Of a stretch of 13,898 bases of DNA, positions 3,249 through 12,929 are shown piece after piece (position 1 is the first letter of the stretch; every line of letters starts with the position of its first letter). Below the pieces are notes generated by a model, which ran no database searches, was not told the origin of the DNA, and saw nothing but the letters and a program-made list of their open reading frames with translations. This stretch comes from a virus, in the UHGV virus genome UHGV-0274736. The stretch is one strand, 5' to 3'. The translations under genes were made by a program, and so were the position numbers.

Positions 3249-3454
3249 TTGTTAATCCTCAAAACTTTATGCCCGGGCGCAAAAGCACGTGTTTTGTCTT
3301 TACTTATTCGCCACCCGTCTTTACGGGCCTCTTTTGCACAACCAGACCATGACGTACCGATATACTCACCGAAGTCTGGCACTGGATATACACCCTCCGT
3401 ACACTGGCGGCAGTCACAATAGAGATGCATGGTGTAACTTGCAGCGATAGCCAT
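3245..3454 (-). CDS. Small Cys-rich protein (69 aa), possible zinc-binding
   Basis: AAGGAG SD before ATG at 3454; motif C-D-C-x2-C plus a later Cys; translationally coupled to neighbours on both sides. Confidence 0.55.
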   Translation of the reverse strand: MAIAASYTMHLYCDCRQCTEGVYPVPDFGEYIGTSWSGCAKEARKDGWRISKDKTRAFAPGHKVLRINK

Positions 3455-3455
3455 A

Positions 3456-4163
3456 TCACTCTCCTTTGATGCGAATGCCTGCGGCGCGGATTGCAGCGAT
3501 GACTTCAGAAACTTTGTATGCCATTACCGTTTGGTAATCATCGTGAAAATCTGTTCGATGAAGCATGCTGCTACGTTCCGGGAGCGATATTTCCCGAGCA
3601 TCCAGTTCCTTAACGCGTTCCTCCAGTTCGTAGACCCTGCATTGTTCTCTATCATCAATCAGATATAACCCAAGACATTCGCTTTCTACCCAACCGCCAA
3701 AATCATGATCGTAACGCTCACATGAAAACTCACCGTCACCGTCCTTTGTTGGAATGGTGTAACTATCTAATGGGCCACCATATGTCGGCACATTTCCCAA
3801 TGTTGGATGCTCAATCCACATGAAAAATGCACGTCCGGTTATTGGGCAAATATCTGGCCGCCATTGGTTACGAACAGCCTTGGTTTCGGATAATTCTTCA
3901 GCGTGTTGTTTTACTTCCTCAAGCTCAACTCTCAGCTTCCCCACCGTTAGCGCAATATCCTCGTTCTCCTGATCGCGGCTTTTGATGTATTGCAGGTTTC
4001 TTTCCCGTTCATCCAACAATGCCAGCGCGATATCTGGCGAAAAGTGCTTCATAAAATCGTTAAGCGCATTAATTCGCTGATCGAAAGGCATTACAGGTGC
4101 TTCACCAGCAATTTTTGTTTTTTCAGCGATTTCACGAAGCTTTTGATAATCAATCTTGCTCAC
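3456..4163 (-). CDS. Ea22-like protein (235 aa)
   Basis: GTG start with AGGAGG SD; segments LLDERERNLQYIKSRDQENEDIALTVGKLRVELEE and C-terminal AAGIRIKGE resemble recalled conserved N- and C-terminal regions of lambda Ea22, with a divergent middle region. Confidence 0.5.
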   Translation of the reverse strand: MSKIDYQKLREIAEKTKIAGEAPVMPFDQRINALNDFMKHFSPDIALALLDERERNLQYIKSRDQENEDIALTVGKLRVELEEVKQHAEELSETKAVRNQWRPDICPITGRAFFMWIEHPTLGNVPTYGGPLDSYTIPTKDGDGEFSCERYDHDFGGWVESECLGLYLIDDREQCRVYELEERVKELDAREISLPERSSMLHRTDFHDDYQTVMAYKVSEVIAAIRAAGIRIKGE

Positions 4164-7735: not shown

Positions 7736-7924
7736 TTATTCGTCATGCATTTCAGGTAATTCTTCGTATTCGACTCCCCATACGTTTTTACACCAACTAA
7801 CTCGCTCATATCTTTTACAAAAATCAGACCACATAACTTGGGTTCCATCATGGTTTGTTATTACTTCTGTAATATCACCAACACTAACAAAACTGGTATT
7901 AGAAGCAGTTATTTTTACTTTCAT
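7736..7924 (-). CDS. Hypothetical protein (62 aa)
   Basis: Complete ORF; start overlaps the stop of the upstream 98-aa gene (TAATG); no recognised motif. Confidence 0.45.
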   Translation of the reverse strand: MKVKITASNTSFVSVGDITEVITNHDGTQVMWSDFCKRYERVSWCKNVWGVEYEELPEMHDE

Positions 7925-9088: not shown

Positions 9089-9670
9089 ATGAACAACTCA
9101 TGGTGGCAGGAACTAATGCATTTTTTCCTGCAAGGAATGACACTTAAACAGTTGATTCATATGCTAATCATCCTGATCATATTGATTATTGTTATGCCGG
9201 TAAGCGTAAAAGAATGGATAAACCTGCATAATCCAGAAATCCTTCCTCATTATTGGATGTATTACATCCTGTTGTTCTGCGTTAGCTATGTGCTTAACGG
9301 TGTTGTTAATTCCGCTTATCACGCTGTGACTGAAAGAATTGAGGTATCCGCTGCTCAGAAGCGCAAATCTAAAGAAGAAAAATATGTGCAAGATTTGTTT
9401 GATTCGTTAACTCTTGGAGAAAGAGCGTATTTGGCATTCGCTGTAGCCGCGAATAACAAGCTAAAGACAGAAAAGGGAAGCCCCGAAGCAATCTCATTGC
9501 TCGAAAAAGGGCTTCTTATTCGGATACCTTCTGCTACTGGATATCCTGAAATCGACCGTTTTGTTATCCCGGAACGCTATAGAAATGAGTGCTACATTAG
9601 GTTTGCTGGGAAGAAAGACAGTCTTATGGATGAACTTATCGCTCAGGATAAGCATGGCAAAAACAAGTAA
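9089..9670 (+). CDS. sieB: Superinfection exclusion protein B
   Basis: MNNSWWQELMHFFLQGMTLKQLIHMLIILIILIIVMPVSVKEWINLHNPEILPHYWMYYILLFC... matches recalled lambda SieB; convergent with N as in lambda. Confidence 0.85.
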   Translation: MNNSWWQELMHFFLQGMTLKQLIHMLIILIILIIVMPVSVKEWINLHNPEILPHYWMYYILLFCVSYVLNGVVNSAYHAVTERIEVSAAQKRKSKEEKYVQDLFDSLTLGERAYLAFAVAANNKLKTEKGSPEAISLLEKGLLIRIPSATGYPEIDRFVIPERYRNECYIRFAGKKDSLMDELIAQDKHGKNK

Positions 9671-9686
9671 TTAGCAAATGATTTTA

Positions 9687-10070
9687 TCATCTCGCCGTCA
9701 GTTGTTTTGATTTCCTGTAGCCTGCCGCGTAAATGGCTACGTTTGGAAGACATACACCAGTTTCTGGTTGCTTATGTCCAAACTCATTCGCGTACACAAT
9801 GGCCGCTCGCTCCAGATTGCGTCTGTATTCTTTCTGTTGCCAGATCACGTCCTGTGCCATGAACTTAATTGGCTTAGCGTCTTCTATGCGCTCAGGCGTT
9901 TCGTGAGCACCTTTAGCCTGAATCTGCGCTCTGCTTAGAGTAGGGCGGTGTAATACTTCTGAACTTATTGCTTCTTCGCGGGCCAGCACGCCGTTAGCTA
10001 ATGCCTTTGCCTTTAAACGCTCACGACGACGAGAACGTGAATTGCCTTTGAACTGAGTTCTGCGTGTCAT
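9687..10070 (-). CDS. N: N-type transcription antiterminator (127 aa) with N-terminal arginine-rich motif
   Basis: AGGAGG SD 6 nt before ATG; N-terminal GNSRSRRRERLKAKA is an arginine-rich RNA-binding motif like lambda/P22 N; sits directly downstream of a boxB-like hairpin and pL-like promoter. Could alternatively be a Nun-type factor. Confidence 0.7.
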   Translation of the reverse strand: MTRRTQFKGNSRSRRRERLKAKALANGVLAREEAISSEVLHRPTLSRAQIQAKGAHETPERIEDAKPIKFMAQDVIWQQKEYRRNLERAAIVYANEFGHKQPETGVCLPNVAIYAAGYRKSKQLTAR

Positions 10071-10235: not shown

Positions 10236-10250
10236 GCGCTTTGTCAGCGC
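10236..10250 (-). promoter_or_regulatory. nutL boxB-like hairpin (GCGCTGACAAAGCGC on the transcribed minus strand)
   Basis: 5-bp stem with 5-nt GACAA loop in the N leader; the same hairpin core with the same 5' flank CTACG recurs downstream of cro (see nutR). Confidence 0.6.
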
Positions 10251-10318
10251 CGTAGATTCATATTCGAATCGTTGTATATTCACCGCCCTGGTGAGTAGTG
10301 CGTCCTGCTGATAGCTAA

Positions 10319-10347
10319 ATAGTACGATGTGTACTTTATTGAGTCAA
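10319..10347 (-). promoter_or_regulatory. pL-like promoter with operator OL candidate in the spacer
   Basis: On minus strand: -35 TTGACT (10342-10347), 17-nt spacer, -10 TACTAT (10319-10324); 15-bp perfect palindrome AGTACGATGTGTACT (10321-10335) overlaps the spacer and -10. Confidence 0.5.
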
Positions 10348-10404
10348 TACAAAATGTTCTAAATATGGTTGGTTTTTTATAACACCTTGTATTTTATTGA
10401 TTTA

Positions 10405-10440
10405 TATTTTGGAAAAAGAAAACCCGACGCTAAGGTCGGG
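10405..10440 (-). terminator. Intrinsic terminator downstream of cI
   Basis: Hairpin CCCGAC-GCTAAG-GTCGGG at 10423-10440 followed on the minus strand by TTTTCTTTTTCC; lies 33 nt past the cI stop. Confidence 0.6.
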
Positions 10441-10472
10441 TTATTGTTGTGTGTTTTAGAGTGGTGATGCTG

Positions 10473-11132
10473 TTAACTAAATGTCTCTTCAGGCCACTGG
10501 CTGGCGATAACTTTCCCTACTACGGAACAGCTATCATTGCATGGGATCATTGGATATTGCGGGTTTAGTGGTTGTAGGAACACCTGACCGCTATCCCTGA
10601 TCAGTTTCTTGAAGGTAAACTCCTCACCACCAAGTCTGGCTATGCAGAAATCACCTGGCTCAACAGCCTGCTCAGGGTCAACGAGAATTAACATCCCGTC
10701 AGGAAAACTTGGCTTGGATCCTGTTGGTGCGGTCATGGAATTACCTTCAACTTCAAGCCAAAACGCACAATCACTGGCTTTTTTGGTTGTGCTGACCCAT
10801 CTCTCCGCATCACCTTTGGTAAAGGTTCTAAGCTCAGGCGAGAACATCCCGGCCTGAACATGAGAAAAAACAGGGTACTCATATTGTTTTTTTACGGGGG
10901 CAGATGAGTATTCGCCAACAGGTGAAAATGTACCGTCGTGGTTGAATGAGACGTTATCAATACCAAGGTATTTAAACACCACACCAATCTCGTCAAGAGA
11001 TGGATGACGAGATCCGCGCAACCAGTGACCAATTCCACCCTGCGTCATACCAAGCTCTTCAGCTAACTTCTCTTGAGTTATGCCGAGCTCTTTCATTCTG
11101 GATCTAGCCAGTTCATACCATTTCATTTTCAT
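10473..11132 (-). CDS. cI: CI repressor: HTH (XRE-type) N-terminal domain plus lambda-type LexA-like S24 autopeptidase C-terminal domain
   Basis: C-terminal roughly 130 aa ([21 protein letters not shown]...GNSMTAP...[27 protein letters not shown]...) match recalled lambda CI including the Ala-Gly cleavage site and Ser/Lys dyad; N-terminal domain differs from lambda. Start is ambiguous (ATG at 11132 or 11126); the track ORF start at 11207 would run through the operator region. Confidence 0.85.
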
Positions 11133-11188
11133 ATCCTTATTATTACGCTCTGTACTAAAACCATCCATGCACAAGATGTATTTTTTGT

Positions 11189-11217
11189 TTGCATTCCAAG
11201 AGTACATATCGTATTAT
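11189..11217 (+). promoter_or_regulatory. pR-like promoter with operator OR candidate in the spacer
   Basis: -35 TTGCAT (11189-11194), 17-nt spacer, -10 TATTAT (11212-11217); spacer contains AGTACATATCGTATT (11201-11215), nearly identical to the OL palindrome. Confidence 0.5.
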
Positions 11218-11243
11218 TGTTTCATAGTTACTATGGAGGGCAT

Positions 11244-11459
11244 ATGAGCAACCTACGAAAATATCGAGAGTCACTGAATATCTCTCAAGCAACCCTTGCT
11301 AAGGCGGTTGGATGCACACAGGGGGCTATCGGACATTGGGAATCTGGTCGTCGCTTCCCAGACCTTAAAACATGCCGTGCTCTTGTTGCGTGCCTAAACA
11401 AGTTAGGCGCAAAAGTCAGTCTTGATGACGTGTTCCCGCCGGAACACCAAGCCGCTTAA
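11244..11459 (+). CDS. cro: Cro-like repressor (71 aa, HTH)
   Basis: GGAGG SD 4-5 nt before ATG at 11244; HTH segment ISQATLAKAVGCTQGAIGHWESG closely parallels the cI HTH ([23 protein letters not shown]); divergent from cI. The track ORF start at 11073 is an upstream extension overlapping cI. Confidence 0.8.
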   Translation: MSNLRKYRESLNISQATLAKAVGCTQGAIGHWESGRRFPDLKTCRALVACLNKLGAKVSLDDVFPPEHQAA

Positions 11460-11461
11460 TA

Positions 11462-11473
11462 AGCGGATCCGCT
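11462..11473 (+). other. 12-bp perfect palindrome AGCGGATCCGCT immediately after the cro stop, overlapping a second palindrome CCGCTTA-A-TAAGCGG across the stop codon
   Basis: Read directly; followed by ATTTTC; may be a weak terminator or protein-binding site. Confidence 0.3.
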
Positions 11474-11500
11474 ATTTTCACAATGGACATTCGTCCTACG

Positions 11501-11515
11501 TCGCTGACAAAGCGA
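11501..11515 (+). promoter_or_regulatory. nutR boxB-like hairpin (TCGCTGACAAAGCGA)
   Basis: Same stem-loop core and CTACG 5' flank as the nutL candidate; located between cro and cII as in lambda. Confidence 0.55.
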
Positions 11516-11590: not shown

Positions 11591-11623
11591 ATATTAAGAA
11601 ATGACACAAACAAGTTACAGCAA
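11591..11623 (-). promoter_or_regulatory. Candidate pRE (CII-activated promoter) overlapping the cII start
   Basis: Minus strand reads TTGC-TGTAAC-TTGT (11610-11623, cf. the CII site TTGC-N6-TTGC) followed 17 nt later by TAATAT (11591-11596); orientation would drive antisense through cro into cI. Confidence 0.35.
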
Positions 11624-11897
11624 ACTATCACAGCGCGACGTTGATCGCGCTGAAACTGATTTACTTATCAACCTGTCAACGCTTACCCAGCGCGGTCTGG
11701 CAAAGATGATTGGCTGTCATGAATCGAAGATAAGCAGAACGGACTGGAGATTTATTGCTTCGGTCTTGTGTGCTTTCGGAATGGCATCAGACATCAGTCC
11801 GATTAGCAGGGCTTTTAAGTATGCGCTTGATGAAATCACAAAGAAAAAATCCCCGGCCGCCACCGAGGATTTTAAGCAAATTGGTATGCAATTCTGA
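11601..11897 (+). CDS. cII: CII-like transcriptional activator (98 aa)
   Basis: Central HTH region and C-terminus [18 protein letters not shown] resemble recalled lambda CII (...KKRPAATERSEQIQMEF); position after cro/nutR. Confidence 0.8.
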
Positions 11898-11929: not shown

Positions 11930-12076
11930 ATGACAAAACAACTCAGTCCTTACCAGGACAAAATTCACAAACACATACTACGTGATCGCTTCCTGTCCAG
12001 CTTCAAGCAGCCTGGTCGATTCCGGTCTGAGTTGGAAAAAGTGAAGCTGATGCAGAAGGAGAAAGGTCATGAGTAA
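11930..12076 (+). CDS. Small hypothetical protein (48 aa) between cII and O
   Basis: AGGAG SD 6 nt before ATG at 11930; stop overlaps the O start by 8 nt; below the length cut-off of the ORF track. No recognised family. Confidence 0.4.
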
Positions 12077-12929
12077 TATTGCAACCGTAACACATTTAAG
12101 GCCTTCACAACGGCCTGTGGAGCGTCGTGTGGCAGAAGTTGAAGATGGTTATACCCGTCTTGCAAATGCCCTGTATGAAGAGCTTATCGGCGCAGATTTA
12201 ACGAAAAATCAGAGCAAGGTTGCCCACGCCATATGCCGTAAAACATACGGCTACGGTAAAAAGATGGATCGCATCTCTGATAGTCAGTTAGCTCAAATTA
12301 CCAGGCTGCCAAGACAGAAGGTAAACAAGGCCAAGAATGAGCTTATCGCGATGAAGGTTATCCTTCGCGAAGGCCAGCAAATCGGGCCTAACAAGAACAT
12401 CGAGGAATGGCAAATCGAAGGGTGTCACTACTCTGGTGATAATGTCACTGCATTGGTGACAAAAAGTGTCACCAAAACGGTGACAGCGCTGTCACCAAAA
12501 CAGGGACACACAAAAGAAACTATTACAAAAGAAAAAAGAAATAATAAAAACACTATGTCCGAAAGTGTTCGGACGGAGTGTGAAAAATCACCTGACCGTC
12601 ACGAAGAAACCGACAAGGCATTCGAGGAAATATTCTGGTGTGCAGGCATGCGGAAAGCCGGGAAGAAAAACGCAGCTTCGGCATTCAGAACACAGTTCAG
12701 GGAATGGCGTAAAACTACCAGGGGTACGGCAAGCGAGTTTGCCACGATGCTGGCAGAAGACATCGCATGCAGGAATGGTAAGCAGTTCGGATTCGACAGG
12801 TTGTTACCATCGAGCTACCTGAACGGTCAACGCTGGAACGACGAGAAGCCAGAAACTATTCAACCACAATCCAAACCATCATCCGCAATCACCGTATCGA
12901 AAACTGGCTACGTGTTTTTCGACAGGTGA
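12069..12929 (+). CDS. O: Replication initiator, lambda O-like N-terminal domain with a non-lambda C-terminal domain (286 aa)
   Basis: N-terminal segment [73 protein letters not shown]...GPNKNIEEW parallels recalled lambda O; iterons lie inside the gene. Confidence 0.8.
12421..12575. repeat. Replication origin candidate: iterons built on GGTGACA/TGTCACC inverted half-sites, adjacent AT-rich block, then palindrome GTCCGAA-AGTG-TTCGGAC
   Basis: GGTGACAAAAAGTGTCACC and GGTGACAGCGCTGTCACC, each followed by AAAAC, plus degenerate copies upstream; A-rich tract 12505-12550; 7-bp-arm palindrome at 12557-12574. Confidence 0.6.

Follow-up and report, generated by a model that had tools for sequence, protein, structure and literature searches.

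The 13,898-nucleotide stretch of virus genome UHGV-0274736 analyzed here, referred to below as the window, contains two look-alike 15-bp sequences, AGTACGATGTGTACT at 10321-10335 and AGTACATATCGTATT at 11201-11215, each embedded in a promoter-like element, which raises the question of whether they are operators, to what kind of switch they might belong and which proteins might read them. A preliminary description of the DNA had proposed that they are operators shared by promoters resembling pL and pR, and this reading is supported by their position, by a motif family of six sites, by conservation of the site arms, by co-variation with recognition helices and by prior annotation. Very probably, the two sequences correspond to OL1 and OR1, the operators nearest the promoters, in a lysis/lysogeny switch that is of lambda type and has VT2-Sakai ('CI2c') immunity. 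The sites are real, ordinary and already annotated in Stx phages, and as elements they are of a familiar kind. What was computed here is the motif family, the restriction of its members to the control regions, the selective conservation, the protein co-variation and the gene and domain content.

A lambdoid immunity region

The region around the sites is a lambdoid immunity region of textbook layout, running through the window as N (minus strand), pL/OL, a terminator, cI (minus strand), OR, cro (plus strand), cII and O. Searches against Pfam recovered the lambdoid gene order SieB, N, CI (HTH_3 and Peptidase_S24), Cro (HTH_3), CII and O, as follows.

9089-9670: SieB (Pfam)
9687-10070, minus strand: N antiterminator (Pfam N_peptide)
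10473-11132, minus strand: cI repressor, 219 aa (Pfam HTH_3 N-terminal domain, Peptidase_S24 C-terminal domain)
11244-11459, plus strand: cro, 71 aa (Pfam HTH_3)
11601-11897: CII (Pfam Phage_CII)
12069-12929: replication protein O (Pfam Phage_rep_O)

The divergent cI and cro genes (minus and plus strand, respectively) are separated by an intergenic region of 111 bp, and early genes lie on both flanks, with N and a candidate nut site on the left and cII and the replication genes on the right. A scan of the whole window with Rfam at gathering thresholds returned no RNA family and thus gave no pointer to an RNA-level explanation.

The segment 10200-11260 shares 99.5% identity with an E. coli MB46 prophage, and about a quarter of the complete E. 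coli genomes (1399 of 5426) contain a match to it. The DNA spanning cI, OR and cro is about 93% (92.8%) identical to that of AP005153, Stx2 phage II, Nil2, 2851 and the PA series, and the CI protein is 96.3-96.8% identical over its full length to those of VT2-Sakai, PA29 and Stx2a_WGPS4.

Pfam places the HTH_3 domain of CI at residues 11-58 and the Peptidase_S24 domain at residues 87-209; by sequence, CI thus combines a helix-turn-helix with a LexA-like S24 self-cleaving domain. Residues 84-218 are approximately 97% identical to the C-terminal domain of lambda CI, and the alignment of the two proteins shows conservation of VQAGMF, GNSM and FKKL, which hold the Ala-Gly cleavage site and the catalytic Ser and Lys. 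A PDB sequence search with the CI N-terminal domain yielded no close structure. Smith et al. (PMC3430580) described a CI of this type ('CI2c') as having a C-terminus in common with lambda CI and a unique N-terminus, and noted that the N-terminal annotation is inconsistent. The annotated start that gives a 231-aa CI, extending through OR3, is probably wrong. The recognition helices of the two regulators are nearly alike, CTQGAIGHW in Cro and MTQGGIGHW in CI.

Promoter-like elements and the six operator sites

Three promoter-like elements lie in the two control regions, one on the left of cI and two between cI and cro.

10319-10347, minus strand: pL-like promoter, -35 TTGACT (10347-10342), 17-nt spacer, -10 TACTAT (10324-10319), 9/12 match
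11189-11217, plus strand: pR-like promoter upstream of cro, -35 TTGCAT (11189-11194), 17-nt spacer, -10 TATTAT (11212-11217)
11139-11167, minus strand: putative PRM, -35 TGGATG (11167-11162), 17-nt spacer, -10 AATAAT (11144-11139), 6 nt from the cI ATG

The scan reported the pR-like promoter as TTTGCA-18-TATTAT (11188-11217, 9/12), which is equivalent to TTGCAT-17-TATTAT. Taken alone, the promoter scan was not above chance (4 found, 3.2 expected), and the assignment of pL and pR therefore rests on context, namely their direction towards N and cro, the boxB-like hairpins downstream, hexamers that relatives conserve and the annotation of AP005153 at homologous places. The pL-like promoter is directed at a candidate nutL and N, and its hexamers are kept in relatives. 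We infer PRM from the sequence and from lambda geometry; its -35 is the same one that is annotated in AP005153.

The cI transcript is probably leaderless. The arrangement of a -10-like hexamer, 6 nt and ATG recurs in more distant relatives, with CI N-terminal domains 82% (L088) and 50% (Proteus group) identical to the one here, and one of these has no Shine-Dalgarno sequence. The centres of OR2 and OR3 lie 43 and 17 bp upstream of the cI ATG, close to the positions of their lambda counterparts (about -42 and -19).

Four further features bear on the layout; the two boxB-like hairpins were read from the sequence.

10236-10250, minus strand: boxB-like hairpin GCGCTGACAAAGCGC, candidate nutL downstream of pL
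10421-10442, bidirectional: intrinsic-terminator hairpin between OL3 and the cI stop codon
11501-11515, plus strand: boxB-like hairpin TCGCTGACAAAGCGA, candidate nutR downstream of cro
11223-11235: CATAGTTACTATG, a 6-1-6 palindrome in the cro 5' leader, outside the operator set

The hairpin at 10236-10250 presumably resembles a P22-type boxB. That at 10421-10442 probably ends the leftward cI transcript and so separates it from OL; a tM terminator is annotated in the analogous place in 933W.

The operator family of the window has six members of 15 bp, divided equally between OL and OR, and its consensus is A-R-T-A-C-R-N3-Y-G-T-A-Y-T.

10321-10335: OL1, AGTACGATGTGTACT, best motif match, with 4 nt in the pL -10 and the other 11 in the spacer
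10346-10360: OL2, AATACAAAATGTTCT, abutting the pL -35 with a 2-nt overlap, centre 25 bp from OL1
10379-10393: OL3, ATAACACCTTGTATT, an inverted copy of OL2, centre 33 bp from OL2
11142-11156: OR3, ATTACGCTCTGTACT, overlapping the putative PRM -10, centre 26 bp from OR2
11168-11182: OR2, TGCACAAGATGTATT, abutting the putative PRM -35 and 6 nt upstream of the pR -35, centre 33 bp from OR1
11201-11215: OR1, AGTACATATCGTATT, with 4 nt in the pR -10 and the other 11 in the spacer

At the sequence level, multiple related and partly symmetric sites therefore overlap the promoter-like hexamers of pR, pL and PRM. The sequences and coordinates given in the preliminary description (AGTACGATGTGTACT at 10321-10335, AGTACATATCGTATT at 11201-11215, TGTACT at 11151-11156 and CATAGTTACTATG at 11223-11235) are all correct. 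It had also placed the two main sites in the same position relative to their promoters and called these promoters near-identical across spacer and -10, and both statements hold: each site has 11 of its nucleotides in the spacer and the remaining 4 in the -10, and the reverse complement of 10318-10335 agrees with 11201-11218 at 16 of 18 positions. The description of 10321-10335 as a perfect palindrome has to be given up, however, since symmetry is limited to the outer five pairs (AGTAC/GTACT), pairs 6/10 (G6/T10) and 7/9 (A7/G9) being asymmetric, which leaves 10 of 14 pairable positions. OR1 is less symmetric still (8/15).

A search of the 13.9 kb for AGTAC-N5-GTACT with up to two mismatches, as had been suggested, gave 6 matches where 2.6 were expected, and 4 of the 6 fell inside the two control regions of about 100 bp each. 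The full set of six comprises these four control-region matches together with two weaker sites that are annotated at homologous positions in AP005153. Among the 12 half-sites, position 1 is A in 11, position 2 is G or A, position 3 is T in 9, positions 4 and 5 are A and C in all 12, and position 6 is a purine in all 12. OL1 and OR1 are the two best of the six sites. OR2 is the weakest match, with three arm mismatches, and is intrinsically weak, as in lambda, whose OR2 depends on OR1.

Matrices cross-trained so that one operator set was used to find the other provided a non-circular test. The OL-trained matrix placed OR1, OR3 and OR2 at ranks 4, 5 and 6 of 13,884 positions, directly after its training sites, and the OR-trained matrix placed OL1, OL2 and OL3 at ranks 1, 4 and 6 of 13,884, the top matches outside its own training sites. 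For either control region, none of 5000 first-order Markov shuffles yielded three such matches. The AGTAC-type pattern in the control regions is beyond chance.

Two additional elements had been put forward as partial sites completing the operator sets. GTACT (11152-11156) does belong to the set, not as a partial site but as the right arm of the full site OR3. The second, CATAGTTACTATG, does not fit the motif and has no motif-matrix score, and its symmetry is not conserved: it is perfect in one of 31 natural OR variants, that of this window, the majority reading CATGGTTACTATG. It is a feature of the cro leader and not an operator, and it was rejected as a fourth OR site.

Two further candidates were discarded. 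A mirrored OR layout, with a site 25 bp from OR1, would use 11176-11190 (ATGTATTTTTTGTTT), which lacks the arms, and a rightward promoter over OL3 (ATAACA/18/TATATT) has a non-conserved -35 and poor spacing. OL3 with its flank was seen to resemble OR1 with its flank.

Spacings and the proposed working of the switch

The steps of the mechanism outlined here are derived from the positions of the sites and from analogy with lambda. Dimers of CI and of Cro would both read the 15-bp pseudo-symmetric sites, the conserved contacts being predicted to fall in the five outermost base pairs of each half-site. Bound at OL1 and OR1, CI would cover the spacer and -10 of pL and pR and switch off N and cro. 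At OR2, which abuts the weak PRM -35, it could stimulate its own synthesis from the probably leaderless transcript, and at OR3, over the PRM -10, it would bring about auto-repression. Since the C-terminal domain is about 97% that of lambda CI, with the residues for cleavage and catalysis retained, self-cleavage stimulated by RecA would be expected as in lambda, and likewise pairwise cooperativity and looping between OL and OR (822 bp).

The window resembles lambda in gene order, in the tripartite OL and OR, in the position of O1 over the -10 and spacer of pL and pR, in OR2 beside the PRM -35, in OR3 over the PRM -10 and in the probably leaderless cI start. It differs in that the CI N-terminal domain is weakly similar (E about 1e-3), that the sites are of 15 bp with an ARTAC half-site whereas those of lambda are of 17 bp with TATCAC, that OR2 does not overlap the pR -35, and that Cro, in contrast to lambda Cro, belongs to HTH_3 and carries a recognition helix resembling that of CI. 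The spacings differ as well, being 26/33 bp in OR and 25/33 bp in OL compared with about 23/24 and 24/20 in lambda. They are not mirror-symmetric, the lambda-like short distance falling between OL1 and OL2 on the left and between OR2 and OR3 on the right.

The short spacings are fixed: all 88 loci examined for it have 26 bp between OR3 and OR2, and 76 of 77 have 25 bp between OL1 and OL2. OR1-OR2, which measures 33 bp here, ranges from 32 to 35 bp in nature, as set by a run of 5-8 T, and OL2-OL3 from 33 to 34 bp. With 33 bp (32-35) in place of the 24 bp of lambda, cooperativity between OR1 and OR2 in the style of lambda is not assured; 33 bp corresponds to about three helical turns, which would put OR1 and OR2 on the same face.

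One possible, although rather unlikely, alternative is that the sites are real operators working by a logic unlike that of lambda, in which a lambda-identical cooperativity domain is joined to a non-lambda operator layout, the cooperative OR pair is OR2-OR3 instead of OR1-OR2, and activation and auto-repression of PRM are coupled. The C-terminal domain of lambda CI pairs dimers about 24 bp apart, and that of the present CI is essentially the same. The 26-bp and 25-bp distances are constant, and the long ones vary through the T-run. A flexible linker may tolerate 33 bp, however, and the intrinsic weakness of OR2 is again as in lambda, where OR1 is needed. Were OR2-OR3 the pair, occupation of the activating site would bring with it occupation of the auto-repressing one, and CI would be held at a low level. 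Similar occupancy of OR2 and OR3 reported for the 933W and BAA2326 repressors (PMC5977221) counts in favor of such pairing, which would here be reached by a different route.

Conservation of the sites and their proposed readers

The preferred reading, operators of a lambda-type switch recognized by the CI and Cro encoded beside them, was examined further in natural variants. The sample of 80 viral contigs plus several genome loci encoding the same CI N-terminal domain comprised 31 different sequences of OR and 36 of OL, in which 6 of 60 arm columns are variable as against 105 of 158 other columns (Fisher p = 1.7e-14, a value that overstates independence because the variant sequences are related to one another); of the centre columns, 18 of 30 vary. 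Substitutions within the 15-mers are almost confined to the central five positions, and the spacers between sites change freely, with indels. Among the 36 OL variants, the arms of OL1 are invariant and its centre alone varies, while OL2 likewise has invariant arms and a centre that changes solely in the two most divergent sequences. OR3 is unchanged in 26 viral-contig OR variants and differs by one centre base in the 82%-identity relative. OR2 keeps its arms and varies in the centre, and centre position 8 is the only variable position of OR1. The arms are selectively conserved, a pattern that is plain in the variants despite the generous p-value.

More distant relatives add a second line of evidence. 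In a prophage from Enterobacteriaceae whose N-terminal domain is 82% identical, the recognition helix is unchanged and all arms are kept, while centres and surroundings have diverged; its OR sites are ATTACGCTTTGTACT, TGCACGTTATGTATT and AGTACATATTGTATT and its OL sites AGTACATGTTGTACT, AATACATTTTGTTCT and ATAACGTATTGTTTG, with OL 2.2 kb from cI. In Moellerella, Providencia and Proteus prophages, whose N-terminal domains are 50% identical, the 3+3 layout is retained: relative to the cI ATG the OR sites lie at +9, +36 and +70, and the OL sites are 23 and 34 bp apart. Their half-site is TATAC/AATAC, however, and AGTAC is never present. The CI helix reads SKGAVGHW in this group compared with TQGGIGHW here, and the Cro helix TKGNISHY compared with TQGAIGHW. 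The change from Gln to Lys in helix 3, the recognition helix, of both proteins, together with the altered site, is as expected if CI and Cro both read the sites. In distant relatives, the operator arms thus co-vary with the CI and Cro recognition helices.

A comparable sharing of sites is found in 434 and P22, where HTH_3-type CI and Cro proteins with common recognition-helix residues read the same short symmetric sites, although sequence similarity to the present proteins is distant (E 0.003-0.4) and both half-site and site length differ. In the repressor and Cro sites of 434 and P22 the outer bases are conserved and the centre is variable.

That another protein reads the sites, for example a co-resident 933W-type repressor or a host factor, seems very improbable. 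The 933W operators have been footprinted and are 15-bp rotationally symmetric sites of GTAC-N7-GTAC geometry (oR1 = CGTACTGAAAGTACG; PMC3317979), and the present sites share positions 2-5, G-(A/T)-A-C, around a central base pair. The 933W repressor prefers a pyrimidine at position 6, binding sites with A-T or G-C there much more poorly, and is indifferent to position 1 (PMC3317979), whereas all 12 half-sites here carry a purine at position 6, and position 1 is A. There is no 933W-type repressor within the window, and alignment of the two CI repressors gives about 20% identity (E 9e-9), largely from the S24 region, while the Cro proteins do not align. 933W also has two OL sites only and an OR1-OR2 spacing of 24 bp. 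Membership in the 933W operator family was rejected on repressor homology and on the purine at position 6, and the likeness to 933W operators is one of resemblance, not membership. Moreover, the sites always travel with this cI/cro pair, in 80 of 80 viral contigs and in the genome loci, and change when the CI and Cro helices change.

Equally improbable is that the sites are alike merely through shared promoter ancestry or a sigma-70 consensus, with no repressor reading the AGTAC/GTACT arms: both do overlap -10 hexamers, and the flanks of OL3 and OR1 and those of OL1 and OR3 are alike as direct repeats, a hint of ancient duplication, but four further motif sites (OL2, OL3, OR2 and OR3) lie outside the -10/spacer regions, the symmetric arms are conserved even in non-consensus spacer while centres and flanks drift, and in the Proteus group altered arms go with altered CI and Cro helices.

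The operator set and the CI of the window place it with VT2-Sakai, AP005153, Stx2-converting phage II, Nil2 and 2851 ('CI2c/Cro4'), in which CI is 96-97% identical and all six sites are homologous. The CI DNA-binding domain and Cro are of the same type, the arms are identical at all six sites, and the one or two base changes relative to the window fall in the site centres (in VT2-Sakai, for example, OR1 is AAGTACATATTGTATTT, OR3 TATTACGCTCTGTACTG and OL1 TAGTACGATATGTACTT). OL adjoins cI in the window, with 822 bp between OL2 and OR2, whereas extra genes place OL 1.9-2.3 kb away in Stx phages and some others. In the Stx1-converting phage AP005153 the homologous positions are annotated as 'putative operator' of 17 bp, along with pR (as 'putative major rightward promoter'), pL and PRM. 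The records of the CI2c phages give 17-bp sites, whereas the conserved unit is 15 bp, and we propose this refined operator unit in place of the annotated one.

The OR1-3 and OL1-3 of VT2-Sakai are tabulated in Table S1 of PMC10742460, in site-for-site agreement with the present mapping; lambda CI was the only CI tried there on the VT2-Sakai sites by EMSA, with a micromolar apparent KD (PMC10742460). A full-text literature search for the operator strings themselves returned unrelated papers only, and no footprint, EMSA or transcription data with the cognate CI or Cro (VT2-Sakai or Sp5-type phages) were found in the literature searched. The affinities of cognate repressor and operators, likewise not found there, bear on the inducibility of Stx phages.

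The switch described here is of a type carried by prophages that include Shiga-toxin phages and the Nissle 1917 prophage, among others. The shared operator sequences would be the basis of homoimmunity within the VT2-Sakai/CI2c group, and the GTAC core held in common with 933W may allow cross-talk with 933W-type repressors in strains carrying both prophages. The E. coli and Proteus types together form a natural co-variation series that could guide experiments on specificity.

Operator geometry and spacing

The operators of phage 933W, which have been footprinted (OR at 7776-7846 of the 933W comparison locus, L004), share with OL and OR of the window a 15-bp GTAC-N7-GTAC geometry, despite the 933W repressor being ~20% identical to the CI encoded here. 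At the sixth base of the half-site, all 12 half-sites of the window carry a purine whereas 933W has a pyrimidine, and this position may separate the two specificities. Beyond the six putative operators, the top match to the motif matrix is AAAACATGCCGTGCT (11367-11381), located inside cro and scoring 11.2 vs. 12.6 for OR2; it is probably a chance occurrence.

The T-run that separates OR2 from the -35 element of pR (11183-11188 in the window) comprises 5 to 8 T in prophages whose CI is identical (loci L005-L088), which shifts the phasing of OR1 and OR2 by as much as 3 bp. Despite this variation, OR2-OR3 and OL1-OL2 stay at constant distances (88/88 and 76/77 loci, respectively). OL directly adjoins cI in the window (10394-10472 between them), with 822 bp from OL2 to OR2. 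Stx phages and some other prophages carry one to several additional genes between cI and OL, bringing the distance to 1.9-2.3 kb (compared: L001/L002, L088 and L165). The cI-OL interval is a moron insertion hotspot, to which rexAB of lambda is comparable.

Start and end of cI transcription and translation

RefSeq and GenBank records give cI as a 231 aa protein starting at an ATG at window position 11168 (3274-3969 of comparison locus L003), in which case the coding sequence would cross OR3 and the inferred PRM promoter (region 11133-11168). A start at 11132 is supported by the N-terminus MKMKWYEL, which is conserved in the 50%-identical relatives (Proteus, Providencia and Moellerella prophages, identity over the CI N-terminal domain). 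Inconsistent N-terminal annotation of cI has been noted as well in PMC3430580.

The hairpin of a strong bidirectional intrinsic terminator lies at 10421-10442, with OL3 on one side and the cI stop codon on the other, where it probably terminates PRM/PRE transcripts; in 933W the tM terminator is annotated at the analogous place. Within the first codons of cII is the motif TTGC-N6-TTGT (11610-11623, minus strand), whose pattern and position are those of the CII-activated PRE promoter of lambda.

Candidate nut sites

Judging from sequence, two boxB-like hairpins with a common GACAA loop may serve the N protein (9687-10070) as nutL and nutR, the right-hand one being preceded by a boxA-like element:

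10236-10250, minus strand, boxB-like hairpin GCGCTGACAAAGCGC, downstream of pL, candidate nutL
11470-11477, boxA-like CGCTATTT, upstream of the right-hand boxB-like hairpin
11501-11515, plus strand, boxB-like hairpin TCGCTGACAAAGCGA, downstream of cro, candidate nutR

Cro and its relatives

The cI-OR-cro module is also present, at 91.5% identity, in a prophage of Nissle 1917 (L166; CP035486, from a derivative of this E. coli strain). Bury et al. 2018 (PMC5987069) reported partial protection of K-12 against lambda and Stx phages by a 410-bp amplicon of Nissle prophage 3, described as a 'phage repressor'. Since one of the amplicon primers matches the sequence just 3' of cro in the window, the Nissle 'pr' gene may be the Cro homologue. 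Cro itself (11244-11459) matches a protein of known structure over its full length at E 5e-17: PDB 28tn ('lambda repressor-like protein'), a homologue that could be used as a template to model operator recognition.
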